The position numbers were made by a program, and so were the translations under genes. This document shows positions 9,745-55,161 of a DNA stretch of 64,000 nt, piece after piece. How positions within the stretch are numbered: the first letter of the stretch is position 1; every line of letters starts with the position of its first letter. The stretch is from Gordius albopunctatus (Eukaryota). The notes under the pieces were generated by a model. The model did not search any database and had not been told where the DNA came from. It worked only from the letters and a program-made list of their open reading frames with translations. The stretch spans positions 15,376,001 through 15,440,000 of the forward strand of contig OZ193909.1 in NCBI GenBank assembly GCA_964276515.1, read 5' to 3'.

Positions 9745-9758
9745 TGGCGCCCAACGTG
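9745..9758 (+). promoter_or_regulatory. Primer binding site complementary to tRNA-Lys 3' end
   Basis: TGGCGCCCAACGTG 1 nt after the 5' LTR; matches the known tRNA-Lys(CUU)-type PBS TGGCGCCCAACGTGGGGC over 14 nt. Confidence 0.85.
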
Positions 9759-10246: not shown

Positions 10247-10291
10247 CTAATAGGGTGTGGAATTGGGTTTTGGCATGTTTTTAATTTTATT

Positions 10292-13531: not shown

Positions 13532-13634
13532 TATAACTTAGCCGTTGTAAATATACCATCACTGTCTGTTACATATGTGTTAGTTATATGATATACCAAT
13601 GTATTGTAATGATATTTCAATATATTATAATAGT

Positions 13635-13673
13635 AAAAAAAAAAAAAAAAAAAAAATAAAAAAAAAAAAAATA

Positions 13674-13707
<34 letters not shown>

Positions 13708-14947: not shown

Positions 14948-14959
14948 AAAAAAGGGAGA
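14948..14959 (+). promoter_or_regulatory. Polypurine tract of Gypsy-1
   Basis: AAAAAAGGGAGA immediately before the TG of the 3' LTR. Confidence 0.85.
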
Positions 14960-16133
14960 TGTTATATATGTCACTATGGATTCGTTGAAGACGAGCAACG
15001 AGAGGCGCGGCATTTACCAGGTGCGGGACGATAGCAAGTGAGAGACAAAATAAATCTAGGAAGAGTAACGGGAAGGACGCAAAGGAGAATAACAACTGGC
15101 GCGGGGCACACAAAGAGAGTATTATCAGAGACAATAACAACTGGTGAGTGACAACTGGTGCAAGACACGAGAAGAAAAGAAGTGTATCCGAACGAAAGGG
15201 TGCATCGGCGAACATACATACAAGATGAATTAATAAATTTTCTTGAATATCACTCGTGTTGTGGCATAATTTTTACTTGAAATAAAATATTTATCGGAAG
15301 TACGATTTATTCGAGGACGAATTATTCTCTGATCTAATTTTGGACGTACGATTTAGTCACGGACATAATAGATATATTACCCCGTGCGTGGAAAAAACCA
15401 TTGATTTTATATGGATGGGGAGAGAGGTTATCTAATTTTATTGATTTATAAAACCAGTCAGATAGATAGGTCCGCCCGACTAACAGTCGTTTTCTCTTAA
15501 CGTTTACTCAGGTCAAGACGAGTGAGAGTCTACATCTTTTAAGTTTTTTATGAGGGCCTATTGGACTAGATGTCACAATAGTACAGGCATAGAGGTGCCG
15601 CAAATCGGTAGGCAGCACACTCGGTTTATATAAAAATCATAAGTCAATAAAAAAAATTTTTCGTAAAATGACACTTCATACACATATGAAATATAAAATA
15701 TGACTTGTTTTAAATTAACAAGAAAGTTTTAATCATAAACTAATAGATTAGATCGCCCATTCCCTTTAAAAAAGTGATGCCAATTTTACCGCCATCTTGA
15801 AAATATATTAGCAAACCAACTTATTCAAAGTTATAATGGGATTCTATATTTACTCTCTATTTATCAAAAAAATTTTATCATAATTTTTATATAATTTTAA
15901 GTTAAAACTTATATCATATCATAAAAACATGCTTTGCATAAACAATTAAATATTTTTGATTATGTTATAATAATAAAATTATTTAAATAAAAAAAAACAT
16001 TAAATTACTGAGACAAATTATTTTATTTAAAGCGCCATCTATATATAGTTTTATTTTAGTATAGACTGCAAATTTTTATTTAAGAAATCACATAATTAAT
16101 AAAATAAGGTAAATAATCACAGATTAAAATTTA

Positions 16134-24760: not shown

Positions 24761-24869
24761 CTAAATCATTAAAAAACTTAAAAACAAATTCTAAAATTTA
24801 TTTCCTCAAGTTACTTTTATCACTGTTTTCTCATTTTATATCAATAACCTAATTATTTAAAATGGTGGC

Positions 24870-27263
24870 AAATAAAATCCATAATTTCAACCCAAAAAGT
24901 GCCCTTAGAGCTTTTTATGATAACAACTCAATTGCCCCTTGTTGTCCTGACTCTTATAGGGAGCTTAATCAAAAACACCCAGCAGCATCATCAGCCAGTA
25001 AATACCCCACATCTCCATCATCAATAGTGCTCGAGTCTTCAGACATCCGTGAAGCCCTTAACTCCTTTCCTTTGGACTCCGCAGCCGGACTCGACGGATG
25101 GCGCCCAGTATATCTACAAGATTTACTCAACCTGAATAACTTAAATACTGAACCTCTTTTAAATTCTATTACTTCCTTTTGTAATATCATTGTTAACGGA
25201 AAATTTTCTCATGAAATCATCCCTATTTTATTCGGTGCAAAACTTATCGCCATCAAAAAACAGGATAATTCAGTTAGACCCATCGCCATTGGAAGTCTTT
25301 TTAGCCGTATTATATCAAAAACCCTCTGCAAACTCATAAAACCCTCCTTATCCGCCAAGCTCCGCCCTCATCAACTCGGCTTCGGAATTAAAGGCGCATG
25401 TGAGGCAGCCAGCCATGCTGGCCGGATCACACTCCAAAATATTCCCACCGAGTCCTGCTTTGTTAAATTAGATTTTGCCAATGCTTTTAACTGCATTCGA
25501 AGAGAAACCCTTATTAACACTTTTTTAGCTGAATTCCCACAATTCGTAAATTACATTTTATTAAGCTATGGTTCTACAACCAAGCTCCAAGCTTCGATTC
25601 AGCGAATACGTCATTGACTCGTCCGAAGGCATCCAACAAGGAGACCCATTAGGCCCTCCTTTGTTTTGTTTAGCCATTCATAATTTAGTCGAGGCTATAT
25701 CATCTCAGTGTATTCTGGATTTAAATGTTTGTTATCTCGACGACGCCACCCTATGTGGCCGCCCGGAGGAGATCAGTAAAGCTATACAAATTATCAACAA
25801 TTTTAAACCCACTCTGAATCTTACATTAAACTCGAAAAAATGTGAAATCTTTCAGGCCCCCAACACTATTGACTTTCCAATTTTTAAACCTTTTTTAGTT
25901 TTAGAGAAGGAAAACATATCCCTTTTGGGATCACCCATTGGCGGTGAAAAATCTCTCTTAAATTTTCTTCATAAGAACCTTGAAATTTTAAAATCTAAAA
26001 CGGAACTTTTAAAATGCTTGCCAGCGCATCACTCATTTTACATAATCAAAAACTATTTTAACATCTCAAAGATTAATCATTGTTTTCGCTCATCTGGTGC
26101 ATTTTTACACCCAGACGTTTTAAAGTCGTACGAAGGCTTTTTAAAAACGTTATTAGAAAAAATTTTAAATTTAAAATTTAATACTAACAATTGGATTCAA
26201 GCATCCCTCCCAACCAAATCTGGAGGATTAGGAATTCGCCCTCCCGGCAGCATATCGCTAGCCGCTTTTATTTCCTCTTTTAAGTCGATCCAAAACTTAA
26301 TTTTTAATCTCATAAAACATGATTCCGACCCCCTGCTAACTCAAGCCTTGGAGCTTTGGAATTTGAATGTCACACCCGAGACCATCCAACCTCAAAGTAC
26401 GAGACAAAAGGATTGGGATTCTGGACTAGTATCGCGCTCCGTTGATTACCTCTTATCGAGCAGCGATGATAGCCAGAATTACAACCTTAGTCCCTCGCTT
26501 TTGACGGTTCCGGTCACGAGTGGCTTGAAGCCTATCCCAGCAAACTTTTGGGAATGCTGCTTGAAGACTTTGAGCTATCATATTCCATAGCTTTAAGGTT
26601 GGGGATTAGTTACAGCAGAGAATTCAACTGTCAAAACTGCCTTACCGTTGTAGACGAATATGCTAGGCACCCTCTACACTGCCTAGCAAACAAATATAAA
26701 TACGTTAGGCACACTAAAGCTAATTTATTAATTCAAGCTGCCCTTAAAAAGGCCAAAATCCCCTCAATCCTTGAGCCGTCCGATCCCTCCCTTGAAGGTA
26801 GGATGCGCCCTGACGGCTCTTCTCTAGTCCCCTGGCAAAATGGCCTATCCCTCAAATGGGATTTTACTTGTATTGACCTTTTTGCCCCTTCCCATTTTAA
26901 TTACGACCCTATCGCTACAGAAGAAGGGCGTAAAACTACAAAGTATTCTGCCCTTTTGGCATTCAATATTTTTATCCCTGTCGTTGCCACGTGCTCCGGT
27001 TCCTTTGGCAAACAGGCAATGGGGTTTTTTAAAGAAATCGGAAAACGCACCCCGAAATCTAAAATTTCTGCGTCCTTTTTACTCAGGCAACAACTAGGGA
27101 TTCTTGTTGCACGATACAACTTTAAATCCTTTGCCGACTCATGGCCCATTTTAGAAGAGAATGATATAAATCTTTGTATTTAACCAATATGTCTTTATTT
27201 TTGTATTTCGTTATTAATGTAACTTTGTTTCTTAAAATAAACTTTTTAACAAAAAAAAAAAAA
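24870..27263 (+). mobile_element. CRE-type non-LTR retrotransposon (RT plus restriction-like endonuclease), 5'-truncated, 2 frameshifts
   Basis: RPIAIG, LDFANAFN, GIQQGDPLGP, YLDD, GGLGI. C-terminal CQNC..HPLHC, RH, RPD..DFT..EGRKTTKY RLE motifs. AATAAA and poly(A) at 27251-27263. Confidence 0.9.
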
Positions 27264-29120
27264 GCTAAGTAGTTTTATTAAAATATTATAACCTTAAATA
27301 AGGGTTTTGAAAGTTTATTTGGCTTATATGGTTTTATGTATCCTGAAGTGCCACTTGTAAAAACTTTTTTCCATGTAGGTCGTTTCTTAAATGAGAGAAG
27401 AACTCGAGTGACCGGAAATTACCTATTTTTTATTTTTAAACTATTTTTATTAACATTTTTAACACAAACATATTGAAAAAAAATTAAACAAAAAAATAAA
27501 AATAAAAATATTTGACGGGTCCGGGCCGAGCTCGGGCTTTGTATAAACTTAGCGGGCCGGGCCTGGGCTTATAATTTAATATTTTGACGGGCCCGGGCCG
27601 GGCTTTTAAATTTTTATTACGGGGGGACCGACTGACCTAAACAGGCCCGTTGCAGGTCTCTAGTTCAAGCCATAATGTTAAGTCATGAAAACAAGTCAAT
27701 TGCCCCTTTATGATGGAATATGATAGCTCAAAGTTTTCAAGCAGCAATACCAAAAGTTTGCTGGGATAGGCTTCAAGCCACTCGTAACCGGAACCATCAA
27801 AAGCGAGGGACCTAAGGTTGTATTGCTGGCTATCATCGCTGCTCGATAAAAGGTAATCAACGGAGCGCAATACTAGTCCAGAATCTCAATCCTTTTGTCT
27901 CGTACTTTGAGGTTTAATGGTCTCGGGTGTGACATTCAAATTCCAAAGCTCCAAGGCTTGAGTTAGCAGAGGGTCGGAATCATGTTTTGTGAGATTAAAA
28001 ATTAATTTATGAACCGACTTAAAAGAGGAAATAAAAGCGGCTAGCGATATGCTGCCGGGAGGGCGAATTCCTAATCCTCCTGATTTGGTTTGGAGGGATG
28101 CTTTAATCCAATTGCTGTTATTAAATTTTAAATTTTTTCTAATAAAGTTTTTATAAAGCCTTCGTACGACTTTAAAACGTCTGGGTGTAAAAATGCGCCA
28201 GATGAGCGAAAACAATGATTAATCTTTGAAATGTTAAAATATTTTTTTATTATCTAAAATGAGTGATGCGCTGGCAAGCATTTTAAAAGTTCTGTTTTAG
28301 ATTTTAAAATTTCAAGGTTCTTATGAAGAAAATTTAAGAGAGATTTTTAACCGCCAATGGGTGATCCCAAAAGGGATATGTTTTCCTTCTCTAAAACTAA
28401 AAAAGTTTTAAAAATTGGAAAGTGAATAGTGTTGGGGGCCTGAAGGATTTCAAATTTTTTCGAGTATAATTTAAGATTTAGAGTGGGTTCAAAATTGTTG
28501 ATAATTTCTATAGCTTTACTGATCTCCTCCGGGCGGCCACATAGGGTGGCGTCGTCGAGATACCAAAAATTTAAATCCAGGGTACACTGAGATGATATAG
28601 CCTCGAAGAGATTATGAATGGCTAAACAAAACAAAGGAGGGCCTAATGGATCTCTTTGTTAGATGCCTTCGGACGAGTCAATGACGTATTCCCCGAATCG
28701 AAGCTTGGTTGTAGAAGCATAGCTTAATAAATTGTAATTAAAAAATTGTGGGAATTCAGCTAAAAATGTGTTAATAAGGGTTTCTCTTCGAATGCTGTTA
28801 AAAGCATTGGGAAAATCTAATATAACAAAGCAGGACTCGGTATGAATATTTTGAAGTGTGATCCAGCCAGCATGGCTGGCTGCCTCACAGCCGCCTTTAA
28901 TTCCGAAGCCGAGTTGAAGAGGGTAGAGCTTGGCGGATTAGGAGGGTTTTATGAGTTTGCAGAGGATTTTAGATATAATACGACGAAAAAGACTTCCAAT
29001 GGCAACGGGTCTAACTGAGTTATCCGGTTTTTTTGATGGCGATAAGTTTTGCACCGAATAAAATAGGGATGATTTTATGAGGAAATATTCCATTAACAAT
29101 GATATTACAAAAATAAGTAA

Positions 29121-29899
29121 TCTATATATATAAAGTAAAGTGTATGTATGTATGGATATATGTATGTAAGGACTAAATTCTGAAACTACAGGCCCGATTC
29201 GCGCGAAACTTTACCCGTAGGTTCCCAGGGCGGCCAGGGGTAAAATAGCTTTTTCAGAATCCTTAAATTCCTTTTAGTTTTAAAAATATCGCACATTTCC
29301 TGGCCAGTTTGATTTATAACAGCATATACAATAATGACGTCATACATACAAGGCTGAAGTTTTCTCGAATTAGATATTTAAAAGTATAATAAAAATGTTA
29401 CAATATACGGTCAAAATTATTGGTGTTTAACAAACTATTTAATTTAAATAAATAATATTTAAATTATCATCACGTGGTCGATCATAGAAGCATATTTTTA
29501 ATAATAATTATCCATCCTTCAATTAATTATTTTATTATATTAAAGAAAATTGTATTTTAAATAAATCAGCTAACTAGAAAAATAAAATAATGGTATTATT
29601 GTATAATAAGTAACAGCATTGATCAGCAATTTTTTCAAAAACATTTAATTTTAGTCGGATTTGATGACTAAAACAGAATTCGCATTTGGTTTGTCTTATT
29701 ATATATATGCTAAAAATAGTGGGTTCATAAAATCCATGACGTGATAAAATTCGTGCTCTAAATAAATATTATGGATATTTTATTTATTTGAATTATTATT
29801 TCATATAGGACCCCATTTTAGATAAGTCTTATTAATAGGTTATACTTATTTAACCACTTAAGGACTCAGCCAAAGCAACACTTGGCCGGGTACATCTAG
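29121..29899 (+). mobile_element. Non-autonomous Helitron
   Basis: 5' TC, 3' CTAG, subterminal hairpin cagccaa..ttggccg. Inserted between A and T of the CRE sequence with no TSD. Confidence 0.92.
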
Positions 29900-30715
29900 T
29901 AGAATTTAAAAGAGGTTCAGTATTTAAATTATTCAAGTTGAGTAAATCTTGTAGATATACTAGGCGCCATCCATCGAGTCCGGCTGCGGAGTCCAAAGGA
30001 AAGGAGTTAAGGGCTTCACGGATGTCTGAAGACTCGAGCACTATTGATGATGGAGATGTGGGGTATTTACTGGCTGAGAATGCTGCTGGGTGTTTTTGAT
30101 TAAGCTCCCTATAAGAGTCAGGGCAACAAGGGGCAATTGAGTTGTTATCATAAAAAGCTCTAAGGGCACTTTTTGGGTTGAAATTATGGATTTTATTTGA
30201 AATGTGCTTGGCAGTTTGGTTAATTAAGAATTCCAGTGGAAAGGGTTTTGTTTTACTTGTGCATGTAATGGGATCAACAGTATTAAAACATAGAAGGGAT
30301 TCCTTGATGAGACTTGATAAATTATGTTCATTAGGTTCCCTAACATAAAGGATATGATATGGAAATTTAAAAAGTTTGTCCCAATTAGTTAAGTTATAAG
30401 GGTTTTTGATAATAGAAGTGAATATATTTAGCAGAGATTGTTGGATGGAAGGTCTGGCTCCTCTTGGGATTCTAGAGATAGTATTAGGAAATGGATTTTT
30501 TAAAAAAGAATTGCTCCAAGATGCGTCAGGCGGTTGATTAATTGATGGGGAGCATTTTAAGGATGGGGTGATGACGGGGCTAGGGATTGGCATTAGGGAA
30601 GCCTCTTCAATGTTAGAAGCCAGGGGTGGAATTAGTAAGCAGGGTGGAGGTAATTTGCCAGAAGAAGGGCATCTTGAAGACACAGGGCCATGAATCCAGA
30701 AACAATTATGTTTAT

Positions 30716-33700
30716 TGTAGAGAGGTAATAGGAGTGCGAAGTGCCTCCGGGGATAAGTTAGTTACCTGTGTGTAGTCAATAAAATTAGTCTTACTCACTT
30801 ACTATTTTTTTTACTATTATGATATCCTTTCGTAACTTGTTTTGGAGATTATTTCCCCGCTCCTAACAGTGGCATCTTGAAACTTACGCGGAGATGCAGA
30901 AATATAAAACAACGGCGAACATCGACGCTTTTATAACACAATTTGAGCTATTCCTAAGGAACAATAAGACGGAGACAGATGAGCAAAAAGCAGCTCTATT
31001 ATTAACCAGATTGGATGAGGAGGCATTCCAATTAATACTAGAGGATTATAGAGCTCAAGAGTTGACAGGAATTACATATGAAGAAGCTAAAAATCGGTTA
31101 AGAAAATTATTCCAGAGGAATTCATGGGCGAGGGCAAAGAGGCATGAATTCTCAAAGGTTCGACAAGGCCAGGGAGAGACGATAGACGCGTACACTAATA
31201 GACTCAAGGGCGGAGCTAACAGCTGCAACTTCGGGAACGATGAGTTACAGAACAGAATTGTCGACCAATTCATTATAGGATTGCGCGATAGAAGCTTACA
31301 GGCGAGGCTGTTGGCAGAAAATAACATCAAATGGGACCGTCTACGAGAGCTGGCGTTGACGGTCGAGACGATTGGGGGGCTAAGAACCTTGCAGGACGGG
31401 CCCGAAGAGACGTGGAGCGTAGTGGCGAGACGAGAAGCGTGGCCTGGGCAGGCACGGATTCCCAGGTTAAATCATGCTTTAGATGTGTTAACAGTAGATA
31501 TATATATTAATAACGAGTTATTCCAATGCATCTTTGATACGGGCGCGACGGTCTGGATAGTACCGGTGCGAAGATGGGCAAAGGAGATCCCACGCAACAA
31601 AGAGCCCGTCCCGACGGTGTACGCTTACGGCCACGGGGAAATAAAGATCGTAGCCAAGGTACTAGCCGATGTCCGAATGGGGAACACGAGGAAATAGCTG
31701 TCGTTATTATTAGCAGACGTAGCGGGGCCCGTTGTGCGGGATAGATTTGATCCTAGAACTCAAGCCCGAAATCTGGTGTCGTATACGTTGGAACTTGAGA
31801 GCTGAGGCGGAACGGTTCGCGGTCAATTACGTGGAAAGACCGAAGAATACCAAATCCGCGATCCAGCACGTGATGAAGCAATGGGATGGCAAGATAAACG
31901 AATGCCCAAAAGCAGTCAAGGGAATAACGGTGGAAGTGCCGTTAAAAGAAGGCATAAATCCCGTGTTCATCCCCGCACGAAGGGTGCCGATGACATGGAA
32001 GAAAGAAGTAGAAGAAGAGTTGGAAAAATGGGTCAGAGATGGGGTAATAGCACCAATCAATTTTTTAAGATGGGCCAGTCTAGTGGTACCCGTAAAAAAG
32101 CGATGGGAGCCTGCGATTATGTATAGAATACCGGTTTACGATAAAGACGCGTAAGGTTTGTTGTACTCTTTACCCAAAATCGAAGATTTGTTAAACTCGA
32201 TAACGCGTGTTGTTTTACGAAGCTGGACCTAACAAAAGCGTACTTACAGCTGGAATTAGGGCCAGAGACGAGCTAACGATTGACTATCTCTACGCACGAG
32301 GGCTTATTTAAAGTTAACCGGATGCCTTTTGGCTTAAATTGTGCCGCGGCGATATTCCAAAAAACAATGGATCAAATATTAGGAGGCATAGAGGGGGTAG
32401 CGGTATACATCGACGATAAACTAATTGCAGGGGAAACGGAAGAAATTTACAACGAGCGGTTACTCAAAGTACTAGAAACGTTACAAAAGTGGGGGTTTGT
32501 GCAAAACATTGTCAAGAGCATATTGTGGGCAAAGGAAGTAACCTTTTTGGGATACGTAATAAGTAACAAGGGGATTCAAATCAATGACAATAAAGCCGAA
32601 CTAGTCAAGCAGTGGAAGAATTTAACAAACAAAAATGAAATAAAATCCTTCCTTGGGTTAACGGCATATTTTTCAAAGTTCATTAAGGACTACGCCAAAA
32701 TCGTGCACCCGATTCAGAAACTCATGAAAAAAAACGTGATGTACCACTGGGGTGAAGAACAACAAGGCGCATTTGAAGCCATCAAATCCGCGCTTACGAA
32801 AGCCCGCGTACTGGCATACTTTAATGGAGATTGGGAGACGGGCCTTGTCGTAGACACCTCTGGAACAGTGTTAGGGGCCATCTTACAGCAACGAGCACCA
32901 GGAGAGAATTGGACAGTGGTGGCCTATGCTTCAAGAGCATTAAACTATAGCGAAAGCCGGTATTCGACGATCGAACGAGAGGCGCTTGCGGTGGTGTATG
33001 GACTAAAAAAGTTCAATGAATATATACAAGGACGAAGCGTGACTATTATGACGGATCATAGACCGCTTGTTTATATATTTAATTACAGCAAAAGGGGCAA
33101 GGAACAATGGTCACCACGTCTAACTAGGTGGGCGCTCATAGTATCAGGCTACACGACCAAGTTTGAGTAAAATAAGGGATCGGAAAACGCGGCAGATTTC
33201 TTGTCTAGAAAACCGAACGAAAACGCGTATCAGATTAGCTAGGAAATGCCAGAAGACACGACGAATCCGTTTATATCATTGGACGTAGTAAGACAACACA
33301 CCTTGGAAGATCCGGGGCTACGTCAATTAAAAGAGTGTATTAAAGGTAAACAAAACACAATGGTCACGTATGGTCTAAAGCGCTCCTACCAAAAACACAT
33401 GCCAAAGTTAAAAGGGCGACGAATATTAATTCCGGCTAAGTTACGAGTAGCGGTGCTCCAAAGACTAAATAAGGGCCACGTGTGGATAAAGCGAATGCAA
33501 GAAGTGGCGTGGCAGTATATATGGTGTCCTACGCTCGACGATGACTTATTACACCGCCGCGGCGGCGAAGAAGGCACCGTTGATAGAGTGTCAACCTAGC
33601 CATAAACCATGGGTCCAAGTACATATCGATATCATGGGTCCTCTCAAGGGTGAGTAATACCTGGTGATGGTGGACAATAGCTCAAAATGGGTAGAAGTGT

Positions 33701-37334: not shown

Positions 37335-40300
37335 ATACTTCTTCTTTATCAATTATTAGGTCCCACATTCTTGGGGTTTGTTTTGATAAGTTTCTTCCAT
37401 CTTGACCGAGTGAGTGCCATGTCTTGACTAATCTCTTTAGTTTCCATAACTTTATCGACTTACCCTTTCTATGTGACATGGGGTCGTCCTCTTCCTCTTT
37501 TCGATTTACGTCATCCGTGTCTCTTAGTATATGCCCATACCACCTTAGTCGATTTTCGTTAATCATGTCTGCCATAGGTTGAATACCAATTTTTGTCATG
37601 AGAAAGTCATTCGTCCTATGGTTGAGCTTAGTATACCCCAAGCTTCACCGTATCATTCTCATCTCTGTGGCTAATAGCTTTCCTTCCGTGGTGTTTAATG
37701 CCCATGTTTCACTTCCATAGAGTAAAACCGGTCCTACGATGGATTTATAAGCTTTGCTCTTCAACCATTTACTATTCTAGGCGAATAGTATATTTATTTA
37801 ATTTCTGATTCCTACATTCTGAACTTTCTTTATTTATTTTCAACAAGAAAAAGAAAATGATAATAATATCTATCCGCGATCGCGATGGCAATAAAAGCGA
37901 GTGGTAAATGTAAAATAATTGTTACGCGTAAAAATTACTTTTATCGTGTGTGTGGGGTATAATCGTAGCGTATAGTATACGTGTATGGGGGGAATAAACA
38001 ATTTGGCACATTTACAAAATAAATGTTTTTTAAATCAAACTTCTCAGTAAAAGGGGTCATAAAAATAGAAGTAAGCGGGGGGGGGGGAAGTTTCGAATAA
38101 ATCAATATAAATCGATATACCACAAACCATATTGGAATTTTCTTGTCGCACATTACACCGGATATACTTCGCCATTTAAACCATCCTTTTTGGATCAGGG
38201 TATTAACTTCCGTTGCGCAACCTCCCCCTTGATGTAGCATCGAGGCGAGGTAAGTAAACCTGTCTACTTTTGGGTACTTTAGATGGTTATCCAGCGATGA
38301 TGTGCCTTTACCGTTCATTTCCATATATACCATTTTTCGATCGTTGACCTTTAAACCATATCCAGCTAAGCGCTTTGACCACTTTTCAGCTTCTTCGAAT
38401 ACTTTCTCCCTTGTTTCCTCGCATAGTACTATATCATCGGCATATAGCATATACCATGGCGATGGCTTTTGAATGTCCCTCGTTATCGTGTCTATAATTA
38501 TCTATATATATAAAGTAAAGTCTATGTATATATATATATATATGTGCGTATGTATGTATGTAAGGGCTAATCTCTGAAACTACCGGCCCGATTCGCGCGA
38601 AAATTTAACCATAGATGCCCAGGGCGGCCAGGGGTAAAATATCTTTTTTAGAATCCTAAAATTCCTTTTAGTTTTAAAATATGGGCCTTTTAGTTTTAAA
38701 AAATGGCTTAATTCTAAAACTACCGGCCCGATTAGCGCGAAAATTTAGCCGTAGATGCCCGCCAGGGATAAAATAGCTTTTTCAGATTACTAAAATACCT
38801 TTTCGTTTTAAAAATATCGCAAATTTCCCGGCCAGTTTAATTTATAGCAGCATATACAATAATGAAGTCATATATACAAGGCTGAAGTTTTCTCGAATTA
38901 GATATTTAAAAGTATAATAAAAATGTTACAGTATACGGTCAAAATTATTTGGGTTTAATCAACTATTTAAATTAAATAAATAAAATTTAAATTAATAGCT
39001 TTTGCAGAATCCTAAAATTCCTTTTAGTTTTAAAAAAGGGATCTATATTAAATCGCGGGGGACCTTGTCATAAGCTTTATCCAAGTCGATAAAAACCATA
39101 TGTAGGTCTTTCCTATTTTTACCATACTTATCCATCATTCGGCTTAGTGCCAAGATTGGGTCGATTGTGGATTTGCCGGCCACAAATCCGAATTGATTAG
39201 CCAATATATCCACCTCGTTTTTCAGCCTTGTTACTAAGATCCTTTCCATCAAGGAGTGGCAAGTTAGCTTGATACTTCTGTAATTGCGCAATTCTGAGGG
39301 TCTCCTTTGCCTTTAAAAAGGGAATAATCGTGCTTGCTCTCCATTGATTAGGAATTCGCTTTTCTACCAATATCTTGTTAAGGAGGTTCATCATGGTGGT
39401 GACTCCTTCTTCACGACATCCGAGCAATGTTTCCATAGGTATTCCATCTGGGCCATTTGCTTTTCCTTCTTCATCCTCCTGAAAGAGTTCGACCATACTT
39501 ATATTTAGGTCAATTTTGGGAAGAGAATCTTTGTCATTTGAAATATTCATAAGTTTCTTAAAATATCCTTTCCACCTTTCCGTCCCTTCTTTCGGCTTCA
39601 ATAAGGTGTCACCCTTCTCGTTTTTGACTATTTTAAGAATTCCGACATCGCGACTTTCTTCTCCCTTATCTTGACCAATTTGTACATAGGCCCATCGGCC
39701 CCTTTACGATCCAGTTTGTTTGCCATCTTGGTGTACGCGGCATTCTTCGCTTTTGAAACGGCCTTTTTGCGGCCCTCTTTGCCTTCCTGTAGTCTTGATA
39801 ATCCTCAGACTTTCTTGATTTATGCCACAGTCTATATAGATTTTTCTTTCCTTCGATGAAATCTTTAACCGATTGATCCCACCACCATAATTCCCTTTTA
39901 ATAGCTTTGCGTCCTTTGGTGTGTCCTAGAACACGAATCGCTGTTTCCTTATTGTCCTTAGATAGCCTCTCCCAATCGTCGTCTACGTCCCTTTGCAACT
40001 TCCTTGCACCCAAGAGTGAGGAGGCTTTTTGATGGTATTCTTCGTTCGTCGACGTATCCTTTAGCCTTTCGTATCGAATTCGAGGTTCATAGATCTTTGT
40101 TCTTTCGGGAAATACTCTTCTGTCAATATCCATAACAAGGGGACGATGTTGCCTGGCGATTTCTTCTCCCGGTATTACTTTGCAATCCTTGATGCTCCAT
40201 AAGTCTTTTCGCCGTATAAGCAAATAGTCAAATGCTTCCCACTTCTATAGGTCACAATATGGTCCTCGCGCTTTTGAAAATAGGTGTTAACGATCGCCAT

Positions 40301-41000
40301 CTCATATGCTTGGGATACTTGGAGAAGGTTTTACCCTCCTTTATTCTTCAGACTATGCCCATAGCCTCCATGAATGCGTTCATACCCGAGACGATCTTTC
40401 CCAACGTGAGCGTTGAAATCTGTCCCAATAATTAGTCTTTCTTCCTCTCTTATTCCTTGTATTTCCTTTTCCAATGAATCAAAGAATATGTCTTTCTCTG
40501 ATTCCAAACACCCAATTTGGGGAGCATAGGCGCACATAACGGTTAGGAGGTCCCCTTGATCTGCAATCTCCACCCACATTAGCCTGTCGGAACAACGCTC
40601 GACTTCGACCACCTTATCTTTGAACGATTCGCTTAGAAGGATACCGATCCCGTTTCTACGATTTGATGACCCACTGTAGAATAGTTTTTGGCCTTCTCCT
40701 AACTCCCGGGCTTTGGTTCCGTTCCACCTAGTCTCTTGTAGGCAGGCAATGTGTACCTTTCTTCTTTTTAGCGTTGTGCGACCTCGATGCTCTTCCCCGT
40801 CAACATTCCCACATTCCAGCATGTTATTCTCATTCTTTCCACAACTAGTTTCCTTAACCGCCTTCGTTGTGAGTTGGGCAGTAACCCTAGTGTATTTTTC
40901 ACATTGCACGGGCGGGGTATGCAGTGCGCAGTGTTTGTGGACATAACCGTGCAAACGCTCTTTAATATAGACCTATCTTTATTTCTTCTTAGACGCTGAG
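37335..41000 (-). mobile_element. Degenerate RTE LINE with two nested insertions
   Basis: ORF fragments homologous to the 1956-4930 copy (CWNVG, LQETRW, FIDLDKAYD, LYADD, RLRWYGH). Insertions at 37769-38124 and 38501-39040. Confidence 0.92.
38501..39040 (+). mobile_element. 5' part of the same Helitron family as 29121-29899
   Basis: A|TCTATATATATAAAGTAAAG start and shared ggcccgattcgcgcgaaa block (duplicated here). The 3' CTAG end was lost together with part of the RTE RT. Confidence 0.85.
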
Positions 41001-43504: not shown

Positions 43505-45418
43505 AAAAACTCGGGCCTTCGGCCCTCGTGGGAAGGGGGAAGGGGAGGGAAGGGGAGGAGGGGAAGGAAGGGGGAACTCATCTACACTCCGTATAAATGT
43601 ATCATATTTGCTATGCAATTTATGGAAATACTTACGTGAATATTGCAAAACGAAGGTTGGAAGCACTAAATAAGTGTATATGCCAAATATCATAAAGGGG
43701 GAGAGAGGGAGCGAAGGGGAAGCTTTATGGTTAGTTAAATTCTACGGGAGTTGTATTACCAAAAGGTCATAATAACAATGGTAGGAACAGGAACAATCAT
43801 AATAGTCAAAAAAAACGAAAAAAAAATTTTCGAATCACATTTTGGCCAAAGGTCATTTTTTTCCATTGGTCAGCAGCCAGGACACGGTAAAAGTGGATAT
43901 AAATTCATAATAGTCAAAAAAAACGAAAAAAAAGTTTTCGAATCACATTTTGGCCAATGGTTATTTTATTCCATTGGTCAGCAGCCAGCGGACGGCCAAA
44001 AAGTCATAATAGCAATGGTAGGAACAGGAACAATCATAATAGTCAAAAAAAACGGAAAAAATAATTTCGATTCACATTTTAGCCAATGGTCATTTTTTCC
44101 ATTGGTCAGCAGCCAGGACACGGTAAAAGTGGATATAAATTCATAACAGTCAAAAAAAAACGAAAAAAAAAATTTCGAATCACATTTTGGCCAATGGTCA
44201 TTTTATTCCATTGGTCAGCAGCCAGCGGACGGCCAAAACGTCATAATAGCAATGGTAGGAACAGGAACAATCATAATATTCAAAAAAAACGAAAAAATAA
44301 ACACGGATACACATTTTGGCCAATGGTCATTTTTTCATTTGTCAGCAGCCAGCGGACGGCCAAAAAGTCTTATTATCATTGATAGTAACAAGAACAATCA
44401 TAAGAGTCCAAAAACCTCCGGGATTCTAACCCAAAAACTAGATAAATTGCATAGCAATTATTAAAAAGTATAGGGTAATTATCAATGTTAACCTATTCAA
44501 AAACGAACAAAAAATTTTGATTTATTTGGCCAATGGTAATTTTTTTCAATTATCAATGTTAACTTATTCAAAAAGGAAAAACGAAAAATTAGGATTTATT
44601 TGGCCAATGTTCATTTTTTCATTGGTCAGTAGCCAGCGGACGGTCAAAAAGTCATATTATCAAAGGTATTAACAAGAACAAAATATTAAATTAATTAAAA
44701 AAATAAAAATTTTGCCCTCTCCGGGATTCGAACCCACATTAAATAGAGGCATAAGCCTTTGGAGGGGAACAGGGAACCATATAAATAGAGCCATAGGCCC
44801 TTGTAGGGGAGGGCATAGGGTAATTATCAATGTTAAACTATTCAAAAACAAAAAATTAAAAATTTCGATTTATCTGGCCAGTGGTCATTTTTTCATTGGT
44901 CAGTAGCCTGCGGACGGTCAAAAATTCATATTATCAATGGTATTAACAAGAACAATATATTAATTTAATTTAAAAAAAAATAAAAATTTTTGTCCTCTCC
45001 GGGTCTCGAACCATCAATTTAGAACGTTCGCCGGGATTCAAACCCACATTAAATAGAGGCATAAGCCTTTAGGGGGGAACAGGGAACCATATAAATAGAG
45101 CCATAGGCCCTTGTAGGGGAGGGCATAGGGTAATTATCAATGTTAAACTATTCAAAAACGAAAAATTAAAAATTTCGATTTATCTGGCCAGTGGTCATTT
45201 TTTCATTGGTCAGTAGCCTGCGGACGGTCAAAAAGTCATATTATCAATGGTATTAACAAGAAAAAAATATTAATTTAATTTAAAAAAAAAAAAAATTTTG
45301 TCCTCTCCGGGTCTCGAACCCGCAACCTCCAGGTCGGGAAGCTGGTGTAAATAACTTGGTGGACGGACGGACGGACGGACGGACAACCAAAAACGAGCCC
45401 ATAAATTGCATAGCAATT
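43505..45418 (-). mobile_element. Expanded HINE with internal tandem arrays
   Basis: Hairpin GGGCCTTCGGCCC at ~43513, subTIRs at ~43608, ~44445 and ~45398, (ACGG)n at ~45361-45384, arrays of TTGGCCAATGGTCATTTTTTCATTGGTCAG-containing units. Confidence 0.8.
43776..44400. repeat. Dimeric tandem array (~238-bp unit of two related subunits)
   Basis: Alternating subunits ending gccaggacacggtaaaagtgg and gccagcggacggccaaaa; about 2.5 dimers. Confidence 0.88.
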
Positions 45419-46036: not shown

Positions 46037-47496
46037 TCTAATATATAAAATTCTCGTGTCACGGTGTGGGTGGTTAAACTCCTCCGAAACGGCTGTACCA
46101 ATTTTTATGAAAATTTCTGCGAATATTTGGTAGGTCTGAGCTTAGGCTTTAAACTTTATTCCAAATTTCTAAATGATAAGAAGGTCAAGTTATTTTGTTT
46201 TATACGTTTTGACGTTTAATAAAATGTCAATCAAACGCAACTTTATGACGTACTGCGTATTTATCGTCTGCTTTGAAAATTTGAATATACAGTTCTTTAC
46301 TTTTTAGAAGATTTTTACCCTCATAATCAATGTTCTTCGTAGAAAAATTCTCGGGAATTTTCGAGGGTGTTAAAAAAGTATGAGGACATCATCAGATGAA
46401 TCGGCAATAAATTAAAATTGCATGAATTTATTAAAGATCATTCCATAAGATTAAATGTTTAACGGGTAAGTTTAAATTTACCTGAATTTGTAAAAGTAGA
46501 TATTATCTAATATATAAAAAATTTGTCGTTTGACTTGATACCATATTTGAAATAACTAAAACTATAGTCATTTGCCCCCCCCCCACTTTCTAATTCCGAT
46601 GCTGACTACGTGGTCCGGGTCGGATAGACATATCTTTTAAGTTATTGCCCTTATATATAAATTTTATAATTAATACCGAAATGTATGATTAATTTATCTC
46701 ATTCCGTCATTTATATTATTTTATTTTTTAATTGCCATAATCTGATGTACCTATAGCTATAAAAAATAAAATGTAATTTAATCGCTGAATAATATCGATA
46801 GATCGTTGCACCTTGGACGATATCGATGTAATATATCAAATAAATGATTCGTGTATTGCCATTTTATACGCCATCATTGTCACAACACCCCATTCCTATT
46901 TCAATCATAACCACATCCCCACACACTTATTGTATTTTTTAGCAATAATGTGTATAGCAATTTATTTTTTGAAAATTAGTTAAAATATGGCTAAAATAAA
47001 AAATTATCATTTTGCCCATCCCAAAATCATTATTGTTCTCTTCTAATTCCGATAATTTATAAAACATTTCGTAGGATCTTTGCATTTTCATTGCCAATTT
47101 TAAAATTAGTCGGTTTGATATAATTTAACCGAAACGGCTGGACCGATTTTTATAAAAATTTCTGCGAATATTTGGTAGGTCTGAGAATGGGTTTTAACTT
47201 TATCCCAAATCTCTAATTAGATTAAAATAAGACAAAAAATAAAAGCAATAAAATTTTACTATCATTGGTAGGTCTGAGAATAGTTTTTAAACTTTATTCA
47301 AAATCTCTACGTGATACAACGGTCCAGTTTATTTATTTTATCGTCTGGACCGATTTTTATGAAAATTTTTGCGAATCGGTAACTATATTATTCTACCATC
47401 ATAGTACTATAAACGATGTACTCAAAATATGTTTCTACATTGTTATTTAGCTAATTAGGGACTAAGCCAAATCAACGCTTGGCCGGGTGCATCTAG
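46037..47496 (+). mobile_element. Second Helitron of the same family, directly abutting the first
   Basis: Starts TCTAATATATAAAATTCTCGTGTCAC; ends gccaa..ttggc hairpin + CTAG|T. Shares internal blocks with 42940-43500. Confidence 0.85.
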
Positions 47497-48157
47497 TAAT
47501 TTATATAGTTGTGGTAATCCATAACTAATCAGTTTACCAGAAAGAAATGCATATATATACAAATTCTAATTAAATTCGAGATATAATTGTTTGCACGTAC
47601 CAAATTGTATTTAATATAGATATGTATATCATATGTTAATGTAACTTACCATAAAAAACCGAATTATTAGAGATCGCTAAATAATTTTTATTTAAATACC
47701 TATAATTAAATTGTTAATGAGTGAAATTAGAAATGTTTATTATTAGGACATTCGACTTCGTAGATTTTATTAATGTGATAACAATGGTATCCTTGTAACG
47801 TATACTAATAAAAAAAGCGACATTCACATTTATTTGATTTTATAACGATTAAAACCCATAAATAATAAACAAATTATATATGACATTATTTACAAACCTT
47901 TTTAGTATTGCTATATCATGTATAAATGCTCACATTTATACAACGTTTTCAATGTGTCGTTCGTTTTCATCTATATTGTAATATATAAGTATAGATATAT
48001 ATATAAATTAACGCATCCCAATAAGACTGTCCTCAAGTGTATTACTACTTTGTTATTTCAATTTAATATCAAATTAGCTTAAAGCTTTAACTTATGAAAA
48101 CTTCCCCTATTTATCTCTTTAAAACTCCATAAGAAATAGAGAAATGCTACAGCTAGG

Positions 48158-48282
48158 TCATCTCCGACTTTTAAAATATATGAACAAAAAAGTAAACGTC
48201 CAAGTTAATATTATACAAATATTTCCTGCATTAACCATTTTAGTGAGCCCACACCCAGAAAGACTCAAAACCTGATCGCGTT
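48158..48282 (-). CDS. hh: Divergent Hedgehog-family protein, predicted terminal exon 3 (SG|C linker plus hydrophobic tail, no Hint domain)
   Basis: AAG acceptor at 48283-48285 after a 116-nt intron. The phase-1 join gives QP-E-RDQVLSLSGCGLTKMVNAGNICIILTWTFTFLFIYFKSRR*, aligning to KA-E-NSVAAKSGGC. No Hint-like sequence was seen further downstream. Confidence 0.72.
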
Positions 48283-48398
48283 CTTATATTTATCATTATA
48301 TTCTTTTTATAAATCTCTTAAAACTTCAATTCTGGTTCTATTTAAAAATCTCTCAATAAATTGATTAGTATAACGTAGATGTGCACCATTTTTTAAAC

Positions 48399-48663
48399 CT
48401 GGTTGTACTGAAACATGGATGAAAGAACGTTGGCGATAATGAACCCAATTAAATTCGGCTTTTCTCGCGAGGCCAGCTAAAAATCCGTTTTTACTATGGT
48501 CATAATCGCTCACTGTAATGTCTAAAGCACGACCGCAGGTATGAAGTGTCTTTCTCGATCTATTGTCATCTTCGACAGTCCAACCTTTTAAAACTTTAAC
48601 TTTGACTCCTGGCCATTCCAAACTCACTAGCATCGAGAGCAGGTCTAGTTTCTCTTTACAAGT
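48399..48663 (-). CDS. hh: Divergent Hedgehog-family protein, exon 2 (Hedge core)
   Basis: TTTAG acceptor, then TCKEKLDLLSMLVSLEWPGVKVKVLKGW..LHTCGRALDIT..FNWVHY..IHVSVQP, matching RCKDKLN..WPGVKLRVTEGW..LHYEGRAVDIT..FDWVYY..IHCSVKA. The exon is 265 nt and ends with a phase-1 GT donor at the conserved hh position. Confidence 0.93.
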
Positions 48664-51600
48664 CTAAAGACAAAATAAAATCATATCTAACTTTGGAAAC
48701 ATACATTTCTATTAGACGCAAAATTGTGCAAATCAATTTTTATAGGCAATTTGACTTTGAAATATTAGACTTCTAACTTCAAAAGATTAAAAACTGTTTT
48801 AACACGATAGATAGATCAGATTTGTACAGACGATATACTGGGAACTCCTAGCAAAAAAGCAGGTTTTACCTGGATTATAAAAATAGATCAGGCCTAAAAA
48901 AGGTTATTCTTTTAAAGTTGGATGAGATAATTAGGAAAAAACTTGTGATACCGGATTAGTGATCAAATTTAAAACTTAAATTGCTTTTAATAAAAAACCA
49001 AACTAACCATTGACGTCAAGCCAATTTACGCCCATCCAACCTTAAAGGGCTTCAAACCCCGGTGTTTAAAGATATTGAACGATATTCTTATAATTTTTAT
49101 TTAACTTTAAAGCCAAAAACCTAACAACCTTTCTTAGTTCTCGCAGATTCATATTGGTCTCTAATGTTCATGTTTTTATTGAATTTTATAATAACAAATC
49201 TGAATACCTTGCCAAGAATAGAATACATTGTCGTTTTAAGTGCCCTTTTTTTATAAATGGACCGTTGTATATTAAATGTCTGTGTAACTTTGTTTTTTAC
49301 TATAATAATCCATTTTTCATATCACAAATGCAATCTAAAAACCTGTGAGCTCCCGTTAGAAAATAATATATTTTATATATATTTTTAAATTTTGGAGTTC
49401 AAACTTTTAAAACGTCAATGTAAACAGTTATTTCCTTTACCACAAAGTCGCTTTATTCAAAATTACTTGCAAATAAAAATGAACTTCATTGTTTTGAAAG
49501 CTGTTAAAAAATATTTATTTTTAGATTTATTCAAAACAATACGATATTGATAAGTTCAAAGTCAAATAGTAAATTTATTATAAAAGTACCCAATTTAGTT
49601 CTTAAAACATCGTATACTTTAAATAACACTTTGGGTCTTAAATTAAATTTGTTAAAAAAACGTCAATTCTTTTTATTCATAGTATCATATCTTTGTTTAA
49701 ATTATTTTTGCGTATGTGAATGACTTTGAAAATTTGTGGATTGACTTCAAAATTGCTAAACTACACGCGTCGTTTTGGCTTTATAGGTTTATTAAAAACA
49801 ATATATTTGCAATACACAAATGTCAATTGATAATTTTTTGGATTAAATAGTTTACAGCATGATAGTAGTTGTCACCGACCCAAAACCCTTAGCAAGATAT
49901 ATGTAATGTTTGGGCATATGCCAGGTCAAAAAGCACCCTTACAAGGCATTTTATTTTAATATTCCTTTTAACATTGCCTAATTTTATCATTAATATTTCG
50001 GACCTTTTCAGGCAAATTGTTCAAATATTTTGAGATGTGGCCCGGTTAGGCAAATTTAAAATAACAATTAGACAGGCTAAGTTTGAATAACCAGAGACGA
50101 CTCATTGATTTTCAAATGGTATATCTCAAAATCCACTATATCTTTAAGAGTTTTTGCAGTTCTGGTTTGTGGTGAATACTATAAAGATAAGGGTTATATT
50201 CGCTCTCTTAATGGTCAAAATAAATCAATTTAATAGTTACTTAGGTTACTATTGTCACACTTAAGAAAACTTATCAATTAGTTTGTGGATGAACTGGGTA
50301 AGGGTTTGGCAGGCGCTTGAAAAAACGCCTATTAACTAGCCTAAAAACTTAGAAATTACATGTAATGGTATCAGGAGAAAAATACATTCCAACTCATATT
50401 TTATCAATACTGGGGCAGGTCAAGGACTACTTAAATGACGCAATCAGTTATTATCACATATTAATTTTCTAATATAATTTATTTTTATTACCAAGGACAT
50501 GGAGAATTATATTTAAAAGTGTTCATTCTTGATTGTTTTTTTGATTTGCGGACGGGTAAAAGGAAAATGACGGAACCCAGTTCACACCTTAAATATAGAT
50601 TGCAGACCTTTATTAATTTTATACTTAGGACTATGATTTTGTAGACTAATTCAATCTTTAAACTTGGGCTGAATAGAGTTCAAAAGTTATTTTTAAACGT
50701 TTAGCACTTTGACCTAACATGAAATTGTTAACAATATAACCGATATATTAAATATTAACACGTTTTTTTGGAAACATGGGTGATAAAATTAGACCTTATC
50801 CTTTCTCTTTAGTTGAAGAAGCTTTGCCCACATTGCACATTACCTCTGCCTAAATTGTTGTTAAAATTTTAAACTTTATGTTTATTAAAATTACATAGAT
50901 TGATTTTAAATTTTACATCCCCTGTTTCACTTTAATATTAAAAAGAAGTGCTAGTATAACAAATATTTTGGCCAGAAAAATCGCCGAAACATCTTAATAA
51001 AATTAAAATTCCTTAATATAAACCCGCAATGTGAGGCATGATTTCGCATGAGGGTACGGCTTAATTTATTGGATTGGATAGAACAGTGCCATTCGAGGGT
51101 TATTTAATTGCGATACTAATGTTTTAATCAAAATAGTTTAACGCCTTTTCACATTTAAAAGAGATGTTAGATGTTAAAAGCGATAAAAGACATGCGGGGT
51201 CATTTACACCTGTTATACTCCCTTTTGTTATGTAACCGGTGAGACTAAATGGCAAAAAATGCGATTACTTTTATCAATTAAATGTTTTGGTGGTTTGTTA
51301 GTTAACAACGAGTTGGATTGTACTCTGAGTTCCATGATGAGTTCATGTCATAATATATTTTTTACAATAAATGTTTTTTAAAATTTTTCATATGATCAAA
51401 AAGTTTTAGAGCGACTCATATTACTCATGTGCCATGATTCATAAATATATAAAAACTAATTTAATGGGTGGCCAGGCTTATTCAGACCCTTCGTATTGTA
51501 TTATAATAAAATTGGATAGGTTTTTTTTATAAAATAGTAAATTTATTGTTCTGGGTCTTTATTTTTTTAAAATAATTAAACATTTTTTTGTGATTCATTT

Positions 51601-51942
51601 ATTAATACATTTATTTCTTTATTTACTATTAATATTATGAGATATTATTAGATGTTAAATAAGTTTAAATGTACTTGTAAAAATAGTTATCAATTAATAA
51701 ATGACAAGATAACGTTTTTGAATAAACATTATAATAACATATTTTAAAATAAAAATAATAATAAAATTCCGGAAACGGGTTAATTATGAACCTCCATTTT
51801 TTTATAGCGTCCAACTTTTCATGAAATCACACCAATTTTAGTTAATTTCTCAATTTTATAAGAAAAATTAATGTTTAATTTAATTATAAGCATCTAACTT
51901 AATTTGTATATATACTTATAATTTGACATAGGTCTGTGCATA

Positions 51943-52040
51943 GATCCCTGCACAGGCCGCCCGAAGCCCGAACGGGCAGAATTTTATAAAATAATCGGGG
52001 CTCGGGTCGGGCCTGATCCAAGGCCCGAGCCGGCCCGAAT
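51943..52040. mobile_element. Isolated hAT-type end fragment in hh intron 1
   Basis: tagatccctgcacaggcc followed by GCCCG/CGGGC motifs, as in the other hAT-type elements. Confidence 0.5.
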
Positions 52041-53087
52041 TGAAGTAAACCAAACTAATCTTTTATAAAATAATATTTAAACAAACTCAACTCAATATTG
52101 TTGAACAATTATCTTCACACCGCGTACATTATTATTTCAGTCACTCTTTGACATAAAAACAGATATAGACTTTAAATTTTTAACTATGTATCTGTTTTTT
52201 ACACTTTCTATTTTGTCAAGTCCTCACAACTCAACTTTATACGACAAAATATCCTTATTTCTCGGTATCAAAATTTCATTCTGTATAAATTTAAAAACCA
52301 ATAGGTGAATTTTGTCTTCATAAGTCAGGAAAATTAATAGATAGGTCGCACGCCAGCCTTCAGGTCGAGTTCCAAAAATAGAAGATAAGCGTAGATAAAT
52401 AAAAATCATATTATAAATTTGATTTTTAGTAAATTAATTTCTAAGCAAAATTAATTTTTTTAAAGTGGAATTTTTCCGGTAATCTGAATATTTATATTAG
52501 CTGGGCAATCAGGAGGGATAAAATAGTGAATTTTCGAACACACTTACCTTCTGAAAATCTCAAACTTTGATGTTAGAAGTTATTTTGCAAAAGAGCACAA
52601 ATTCTCAACTTTCATGACTTTATTCATAATAAATTCTAAGGGAATGATAATCAAGTTATAAGTATATTTCCCATGAACATTTTTAAACTTAAAAGGCCCA
52701 TTTTTAAAGGCGTTGGAAAATTGTTAAAACTAGTAACGATATCATTTCTTAATACTTTAAACGTAAAAACTAAAGCGGTTAGCTTTGTGATAATGTACCT
52801 TTGGCAAAAATGTTTATACACAATTTAACAAAACTATAGATGTACGGTTAGCTCAAATTCACATTTTTTAGGATACAAATATAAGTTTTTAGGTTGGCAT
52901 ATAATAACTTTCGCAAATATAAAATATACGATACGAATCACTAAATGGTGAACCATACGAAAACATATTAGTATTTTGCATCTTAAATTAAACAGGACTT
53001 TGAGGTAAATTTATCTTTTTGGAATATAGTTAAAACTAAATACATAACAAAGCGTTTTTTTAGAGAGAAAAGGTTAATAATGCTATT

Positions 53088-53257
53088 CATGGGCTTCGCC
53101 AGGATTGGAACTAGAGGGGGACAATTATGATTTAGGGAAGGGCAATATGATAATTTTTTGAAATTTTACCCATAGTTATATTAAATTTTAAATAATTTTT
53201 GATTTTAGAACGTGGCAGCCGCAGGTCCCTGCCTCCCCCTGACCTGGCTCCGTCATG
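53088..53257. mobile_element. Short hAT-type MITE in hh intron 1
   Basis: Ends catgggcttcgccagg / cctggctccgtcatg. TSD atgctatt / atgctgtt. Confidence 0.7.
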
Positions 53258-54366
53258 ATGCTGTTTGAATTAGATTCTAAGTAAAAGTAGTGTTACAAAA
53301 CCTTTTGGGGGACTTCAATAAATGCCAAGTTTGAGTCGGTCATATAAAATTATAAATTATTTTTTTTATTTGGGTAAACAAAAAATATACCAAACTTTGG
53401 AGTTTCATTTTAAAAATTGATCACAAATTCGAAAGAATCCATTTAAAAATTATTCATTATATAACGTATAAAAGAATGATTGACAGATTTAACTATATAA
53501 TAGGATCCACACTATTCAGTATAAGCTTTTCTAGGTGATTTATAATACAATAATTTCGCTATGAGGAGAGTATATAGGAAGCCAAAATAAGATTAAAAGA
53601 CAAATGCGTTCTCATTTTAATCGAAGCCAATAATTTTTTAATATCCTAATGCTAAAATAATTTCAAAATTTAAGAGGTGAATTACATTTACCCCCCCCCC
53701 CCCCAAAAAAAAAAAAAAAACTCGCTATCGGATAGATTTAAGTTTCAAATGGACTCTTGATTAGTCAAACGCGAGCCTAATCTGGCTATACCTAATGTTA
53801 AGAACTTACAAAAGGATAAGAAATTAGTACTAGCATTAGAGGAGATAATAAAAAATTTTTGAAAAAACGAGTAATTTATAAAACCCCGAAAATTCTACGT
53901 AAGTTTTGCGCTTATAAGAAAGCTGCGATTACTCCTCCTACACTATAATAAAAACTAAATAGAAGATTTAGGTAGCGTAGCATTTAGCATTGTTTCATTG
54001 CATAAACTATTTCTTATTTATTAAATTAATTATTTTTGGTCCCTAACTTATATAGCCTCCTATGAAATAGGATAATTCTAGAATTTTGATAGCATTTTCA
54101 TACCCTAAATGGCGAAAAAAAATTCAATGCAAAAACCCTTAAAAATAAAAGATTTTACGCTTCCTCCTCCCCCCCCTAATAGAATTTTGAACGTTTTGCC
54201 CCCCCCCCCCAATCCAAAACCTGGCTACGCCCGCGAGCATGTTATAAGTCACAAACAAAGTGCTAGTTTCCATGATTTTTGTCCACAAACATAAAACCTT
54301 AAACTCATCTTATCATCGATATCCACTTATAAAGAATGACTTTCGGCGGTAATAAAAGAAACATAC

Positions 54367-55161
54367 GTGCGTCATGAAGCGATCTTTGGTTTGCTTGAAG
54401 ATTACATTTGGATTATCGTTTCGCACCAAGGCAATACCCAATTTTCCCAATAGCCCTAGGGTGTCAGTTAAAAGCGGGGAGGGGGTCGTATGATATACTG
54501 GTTCAGGAGATGCTATTAGAGACCGCATGGCCGCGTAAGATGATGTCCCATAGTTTAATCGGTTTGCGTGATCGACTCGATTTGATAGTATATTTTGTAG
54601 CGATTTTTTGATCGATGGATTGGCGTAAACGGCGGGGCAAGTGAAAGGTCCACTGGCATAAGGATCGCTCTCTGGTACGTTGGGTTCGAATTGCTTAAGT
54701 ACGAAAGCCCTGACTGCTCCGGCATTACGTCGGGTTAAACTGTTTCTCATAGCGAAGGGTAATCCTGCCCAGGCTTGAGGCAAACTACAATTTATGACTA
54801 GTACTAATAAATAAAAGATAACGGGACGCGAGTTTAAGATTGCATGATTGTCGATTAGTACACGATTTTTTAGGGCAAAGGTCGTGATTGTCACGGACCC
54901 CACTAGGACGATGGAAGCGTTTGATGGATAAACTAAGGATGAGAGGAACACTATGAGCGATAAAATAACTTTCCAACGGCTATTTGTCGCGATGCACCTG
55001 AATAAATTTATCAACATATCCCTAAGAACTCCTCGATCCTTTTGGTCTTTGAAATGGGTTGGTGCTGGTCTCGTGTAGCACTTAACTAGGCTAGGACCGA
55101 ATCTGAGAGTTTTGTAAGGCGAGATCGGAGCTGGGATTAATTGTAGCAATGATCGATTCAT
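54367..55161 (-). CDS. hh: Divergent Hedgehog-family protein, exon 1 (N-terminal extension, signal-like segment, first part of Hedge domain)
   Basis: Motifs FVLKQFEPNVPE..ASG and NDNPNVIFK..DRFMTH match Hh YKQFIPNVAE..ASG and NYNPDIIFK..DRLMTQ. The GTATGT donor (54361-54366) falls at the conserved phase-0 hedgehog intron position. The start Met is uncertain. Confidence 0.9.

Follow-up and report, generated by a model that had tools for sequence, protein, structure and literature searches.

The window analysed here is a stretch of 64,000 nucleotides (nt) from the horsehair worm Gordius albopunctatus (contig OZ193909.1, positions 15,376,001 to 15,440,000), and on its minus strand it carries a hedgehog-like gene with a Hedge domain, two introns and a short predicted third exon (Table 1). 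The three predicted exons, when joined, make 1185 nt and 394 amino acids, figures that belong to a gene model and not to a transcript. A three-exon model of about this length, with introns at the hedgehog positions, had been proposed from the letters alone, and it matches the sequence, the intron phases being 0 and 1. What sets the gene apart is the Hint domain, whose loss at this locus we consider highly probable.

Table 1. Positions of the hedgehog-derived gene, its predicted parts and the surrounding elements in the window.
Feature	Positions	Strand	Size, phase, sites	Content or remark
Exon 1	55161-54367	minus	795 nt, 265 codons, phase 0, donor GTATGT	Start codon candidates Met1 and Met49; N-terminal extension, signal-peptide-like segment, first Hedge half with large insertion
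Hydrophobic segment, residues 107-132	54766-54843	minus		At the hedgehog signal-peptide place (hydropathy scan); putative cleavage
Hedge insertion	54430-54603	minus	about 58 residues	Mostly missing in Gordionus (alignment)
Intron 1	48664-54366	minus	5703 nt, GT..AG, phase 0	Acceptor 70% pyrimidine
Exon 2	48663-48399	minus	265 nt, phase 1, donor GTTTAA	Second Hedge half
Predicted intron 2	48283-48398	minus	116 nt, phase 1
Predicted exon 3	48282-48158	minus	41 codons including the split codon, then stop	10-residue linker, Gly-Cys, polar spacer, hydrophobic run, basic end
Gly363-Cys364	48251-48256	minus		At the canonical autocleavage position; Gly follows instead of Phe/Tyr
Hydrophobic run	48173-48220	minus	16 residues	Mean Kyte-Doolittle 2.19; T-rich DNA
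Hint-like LKVGD motif	48148-48174	minus		Other reading frame; possible decayed remnant, spotted by eye
Long terminal repeat (LTR) retrotransposon-like frames	9321-15272; 30867-33599			Protease, reverse transcriptase and integrase frames (by eye); the first element is flanked by similar sequence (9321-9725 and 14880-15272)
Broken non-LTR retroelements	1914-4939; 24853-28218; 29850-30761; 37941-40972			At least two kinds (by eye); endonuclease and reverse transcriptase frames
Tandem-like repeat	43739-44464			Overlapping open frames with recurring motifs
Short, very high-copy repeats	47200-47480; 51977-52257; 53101-53381; 53944-54224			Depth more than 100x the flanks; the repeat near 47130-47380 occurs again at 46084-46203

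Gene model and hedgehog ancestry

Exon 2 matches positions 78-161 of the Pfam family HH_signal (PF01085; E 3.5e-27) and 25 PDB sequences, all of them hedgehogs (best E 1.3e-22), and exon 1 gives a weak match to positions 8-51 of the same family (E 0.018). Exon 1 is an open frame with 44% guanine plus cytosine (GC), against 29% in intron 1, and exons 1 and 2 stay open over 265 and 88 codons within DNA of 29% GC; poly(A)-like signals lie at 48067 and 47834. The introns stand where other hedgehogs have theirs: a Gly continues the end of exon 2 in 85 of the 98 short-tailed protein matches (among 150 listed), which points to a phase-1 intron that was read through in these other hedgehog predictions, and the match P0176 reads into intron 1 at the same position as the window gene. 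Together with the homology of the linker, which is treated below, the Hedge domain and the usual intron positions support the view, already put forward from the sequence, that the gene derives from a true hedgehog.

Contigs from two DNA runs, which belong to one study and possibly to the assembly's own sample, are identical over exon 1 and over 47463-48989, and the X2 contig of the latter interval spans exon 2, intron 2 and exon 3 with no other letters and no gaps, which rules out an assembly frameshift as the source of the short exon 3. Coverage of the introns in these runs is DNA-like, and several high-copy repeats in intron 1 appear in it as depth spikes.

Besides the segment at the signal-peptide place, the hydropathy scan finds a second hydrophobic stretch at residues 65-88; 134 residues precede the predicted mature start, with no Met between 49 and 138. 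An alignment with Shh, Trichinella, Tigriopus and Gordionus places an Ala opposite Shh Cys24, the palmitoylated Cys of other hedgehogs. The window protein retains His140, Asp147 and His182, which we take to be the zinc site, and among the acidic Hedge residues, presumably the calcium site, the DEE motif is replaced and Glu90, Glu126 and Glu176 have become Lys, Lys and Arg; what stands in the Asp129/131 region depends on the alignment used. Because the palmitoylation Cys and several acidic Hedge residues are lost, standard Hedgehog signalling by this protein is doubtful. In canonical Hedgehog the N-terminal Cys that follows the signal peptide is palmitoylated, and Drosophila Hh without palmitate is described as inactive in vivo (PMC5875562).

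Absence of Hint from the window and the relative in Gordionus

A search with a Hint profile had been proposed by the sequence-only reading as a check, and it returned no Hint: a profile built from 21 hedgehogs found nothing in the six frames of the whole window (best E 3), and a second one, from which Trichinella was left out, found nothing in 1472 downstream pieces within 48 kb (best E 0.58). As a control, pieces of the Trichinella Hint scored above this last level in 5/5 cases at 40 residues and in 6/8 at 25 residues. There is no Hint of Trichinella-like divergence within 48 kb downstream, and exon 3 has no Pfam match at all. An ordinary full-length hedgehog, with a divergent Hint exon lying beyond the window or split into small missed exons, is quite improbable. 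The window spans only 48 kb downstream of the gene, GT sites after the Cys in exon 3 are possible donors, and two of the eight 25-residue control pieces were missed; yet the 1472 pieces gave no Hint signal while the controls worked, a Gly replaces the Phe after the Cys, and the gene models of the relative in Gordionus stop without a Hint on a scaffold of 93.7 Mb.

The tail of exon 3, read in frame, was rejected as a Hint remnant, being no more Hint-like than shuffles (score 15.4 against 15.7 ± 1.3 in 300 of them). The LKVGD motif of the other frame lies 88 nt after the Cys codon, where the canonical distance is 66-69 nt. Scored post hoc as a block of nine columns, it was equalled at 0 of 59,998 background positions, and as a block of 13 columns at 9 of 59,902; a frameshift-aware test of a Hint remnant gave 24.0 against 21.5 ± 1.9, a value equalled by 14 of 174 background regions, and the remnant in this frame admits two incompatible alignments. 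The motif bears on the idea of a decaying hedgehog, in which the Hint exon was broken by a frameshift and a deletion in this lineage, the gene is turning into a pseudogene and the tail is out-of-frame debris. Besides LKVGD, the loss of Cys24 and of the acidic residues and the insertion of 58 residues would fit such a decay, which we nevertheless regard as unlikely, given the length of the open frames of exons 1 and 2 in AT-rich DNA, the retention of three presumed zinc-site residues, the failure of the remnant in the unbiased test, and an exon 2 that is 64% identical to Gordionus and has derived changes in common with it.

That relative is the best of 465 matches in a search of 1.84 billion representatives, a protein of 216 amino acids from Gordionus sp. 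m RMFG-2023 (P0001), to which the identity just given over exon 2 refers; the next-best matches are below 57%, and exon 1 aligns to the same protein at E 2e-07. The hedgehog-like accessions of Gordionus are XP_065325397.1 and CAK9290418.1/19.1, with a form of 218 amino acids in RefSeq. Pfam finds in the Gordionus protein a full Hedge domain and no Hint, where the Trichinella control shows both, and the Atlas structure clusters for it are Hedgehog (best TM 0.61). The protein is an automatic annotation; RNA-seq went into the gene prediction, according to a preprint that likely describes the assembly. A profile search returned eight proteins (48-382 residues covered), with Gordionus as the sole close one. 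Neither exon 1 (727 candidates) nor exon 2 (64 candidates) found anything in word-based protein searches. This negative is weak, as the exon-2 search covered lengths that include the Gordionus protein. Metagenome scans found no relative, and of their 66 and 292 pattern matches none was confirmed.

In a tree of 25 rows with midpoint root (3 of the 28 intended rows were dropped, the anchor motif not being found in them), the window and Gordionus proteins are sisters with support 100/99, at 54% identity over 155 columns, and they share a deletion of four residues and the change of Glu176 to Arg. The absence of Hint is common to these two related sequences. The Gordionus protein (P0151 / P0001) differs in its length of 216-218 amino acids and in its polar end. 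At two residues it is the opposite of the window protein, for it has lost His140 and retains the N-terminal Cys. Also among the matches are the Hint-less, bacterial-looking P0171, P0172, P0173, P0002 and P0003, which are either compact Hedge-only proteins of about 183 amino acids, which begin much like a signal peptide and have an early Cys, or double-Hedge proteins, one of which carries the name of a myxobacterium. In the same tree the window and Gordionus rows adjoin three bacterial-type Hedge rows (84/93, not starred), which would suit a gene taken from a bacterial Hedge-only protein and not from an animal hedgehog. Such an origin is very improbable, however: the long branches make attraction likely, both introns lie at the positions of animal hedgehogs, and exon 3 fits the animal linker.

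The third exon and its candidate anchor

Splicing of exon 2 to 48282 places the Cys 10 residues from the junction, as in 18 of the 21 Hint-bearing hedgehogs. Scored on the first 11 residues after each acceptor with a profile of 18 canonical linkers plus the Cys, the acceptor at 48282 ranks first among the 2176 AG dinucleotides downstream. Its score is reached by 2/6225 AGs on both strands, itself included, by 0/2631 non-coding ones, and in 5/4000 simulated regions (a null of about 0.001). The first 36 nt of exon 3 are coding-like, with 53% GC where intron 2 and the 3' flank have 22-27%, and a stop at 48307-48309 would terminate read-through from exon 2 into the predicted intron 2. The earlier proposal that exon 3 keeps the linker and the Gly-Cys pair is borne out by this ranking and spacing, and rank, spacing and GC content give good evidence that 48282 is the ancestral start of hedgehog exon 3.

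Small residues at 362-365 come ahead of the polar spacer and the hydrophobic run, and KSRR follows the run. The 19-residue hydropathy of the predicted tail is 1.73, with a basic end, and the run is short for a membrane helix. An equally hydrophobic 17-mer precedes the stop in 1.9% of 8400 random starts in non-coding DNA, so that the enrichment is modest, and 4 of the 85 tails that other hedgehog predictions gain by reading through an intron contain one. Glycosylphosphatidylinositol (GPI) attachment sites call for small residues, and the Gly in place of Phe after the Cys would suit GPI attachment near the glycine that normally takes cholesterol. The layout of a hydrophilic spacer followed by a hydrophobic C-terminal tail of 15-20 residues is the usual one of GPI signals (PMC9203819), and the canonical autocleavage motif is given in PMC9695228 as GCF, split after the Gly.

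The reading we favour, with a probability of roughly 45%, is that of a hedgehog-derived gene that encodes the Hedge domain and the linker as far as Gly-Cys, has no Hint in the window, and makes a lipid-free protein tethered by its tail, whether through GPI or as a single-pass protein. Exon 2 would be spliced to 48282 with no further intron, and residues 107-132 would bring the protein into the secretory pathway. The anchor would be either a one-pass membrane helix that the basic end halts or a GPI added near Ser362/Gly363, roughly at the site where normal Hedgehog receives cholesterol. Because no Hint was found, the protein would be incapable of self-cleavage or cholesterol uptake, and palmitate is also unlikely. 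Lacking autoprocessing as well as palmitate, it would remain on the cell that makes it and work through direct contact, and it would probably be no standard Patched ligand. If the loss of Hint was single and old, a linker that can still be recognised would imply that the linker is still used.

A number of observations weigh against a translated, anchoring tail. The linker score of 48282, 14.0, lies under those of all 18 true linkers (17.2-35.5, leave-one-out), and the Gly-Cys dipeptide alone says little, since another AG, at 354 nt from the donor, yields it too (2 of the 31 AGs within 500 nt). The acceptor itself is AAG, lacks a branch-point match and has 30% pyrimidines, against 70% at intron 1, and it has rivals at 48337, with 50% pyrimidines and a branch-point-like CTAAT 31 nt upstream, and at 48167, with 70% pyrimidines. 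A hydrophobic run is found in 27 of 264 non-coding frames of 35 or more residues, and in 19.9% of simulated regions at least one acceptor leads to such a run. The hydrophobic codons have 26% GC, much like the non-coding flanks, and the T-rich DNA of the tail doubles as a pyrimidine tract before the AG at 48168, so that an intron of 67 nt (48234-48168) could excise the run. A GPI signal accounts less well for the basic end than a transmembrane stop does. In the Gordionus model only 13 polar residues follow the Hedge domain; it has neither Gly-Cys nor a hydrophobic run, and its end is unlike exon 3 (BLOSUM score -16). Finally, the extra N-terminal hydrophobic stretches allow other topologies, and by its hydropathy the N-terminus itself may hold the protein in the membrane.

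Under another reading, the gene makes a functional Hedge protein that has no Hint and is either secreted or kept in place only through the hydrophobic segments at its N-terminus, the C-terminal run being spliced out or incidental. We see this as the main alternative, somewhat less probable than the favoured reading and backed by the tailless ends of the Gordionus models, the better-looking acceptor at 48337, which would leave a protein end of 6 residues, the possible 67-nt intron that deletes the run, the non-coding composition of the tail DNA, and the presence of two hydrophobic stretches at the N-terminus. Nevertheless, use of 48337, or read-through, would leave the significant linker match at 48282 unexplained, and random starts lead to open frames that contain such a run in only the small fraction of cases given above. 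The membrane-tethered, Hint-less Hedgehog of the sequence-only reading thus stands in one part, as no Hint is present in the window, while its translated, anchoring tail is a prediction; the resemblance of the tail to a GPI or transmembrane anchor, seen in the spacer, the 16-residue run and the small residues, is set against the weak acceptor, the low GC content and the lack of such a tail in the Gordionus model.

Surroundings, known systems and biological meaning

The rest of the window is AT-rich, and its long open frames look like retroelements, their translations having been judged by eye (lower rows of Table 1).

With canonical Hedgehog (Shh, Drosophila Hh and Trichinella Hh), the window gene shares the Hedge domain, the two intron places, the His/Asp/His of the presumed zinc site and the 10-residue linker ending in Gly-Cys. 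It departs from it in having no Hint/SRR, a Gly for Phe after the Cys, no N-terminal Cys, a replaced DEE motif, replaced Glu126 and Glu176, the insertion of 58 residues, the N-terminal region of 134 residues and the predicted hydrophobic tail. Hedgling of Nematostella (Nv 200640) likewise has a Hedge domain without Hog, and a transmembrane region, but it is a protein of 3592 amino acids with VWA, 21 cadherin, Ig, EGF and SH2 domains (PMC2362128), and the earlier remark that Hedgling is large and cadherin-bearing, unlike the window gene, is correct in this respect. The window gene has none of these extra domains (exon 3 has no Pfam match, and by eye the long frames downstream look like retroelements) and does have a hedgehog-type linker. 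We file the locus as a hedgehog-derived variant, because it has neither the Hog nor the N-terminal Cys of canonical Hedgehog, nor the repeats of Hedgling.

Under the reading we favour, the closest functional likeness would be to the engineered Hh::GPI and Hh::CD2 of Drosophila, in which Hh-N is held in the membrane without cholesterol and which were active only at the site of production (PMC3683162). These are artificial fusions to an intact Hh-N, whereas the window protein would be a natural case, with a degenerate, Cys-less Hedge domain. A literature search, with subscription papers and supplements outside it, found nothing on a nematomorph hedgehog or on a Hint-less bilaterian one, and the word 'hedgehog' was not found in nematomorph genome preprints.

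Cholesterol attachment by Hint is regarded as a fixed trait of bilaterian Hedgehog, and the two related Hint-less sequences point to a lineage that gave up Hint, in the sister phylum of the nematodes. In nematodes the Hedgehog pathway came apart, both major classes being reported to lack Smoothened (PMC6956190); for horsehair worms no published statement on it came up. It is tentatively plausible that horsehair worms dropped autoprocessing and that this species went on to swap cholesterol for an encoded anchor at the old Gly-Cys, be it GPI or a one-pass helix, with the palmitoyl Cys gone and action confined to contact. If the tail is true, the protein would be a natural counterpart of Hh::GPI and Hh::CD2 and would offer a test of whether tethering is all that cholesterol does. 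Should the tail not exist, a conserved, lipid-free, Hedge-only protein would still raise the question of a role of the Hedge domain outside the pathway.

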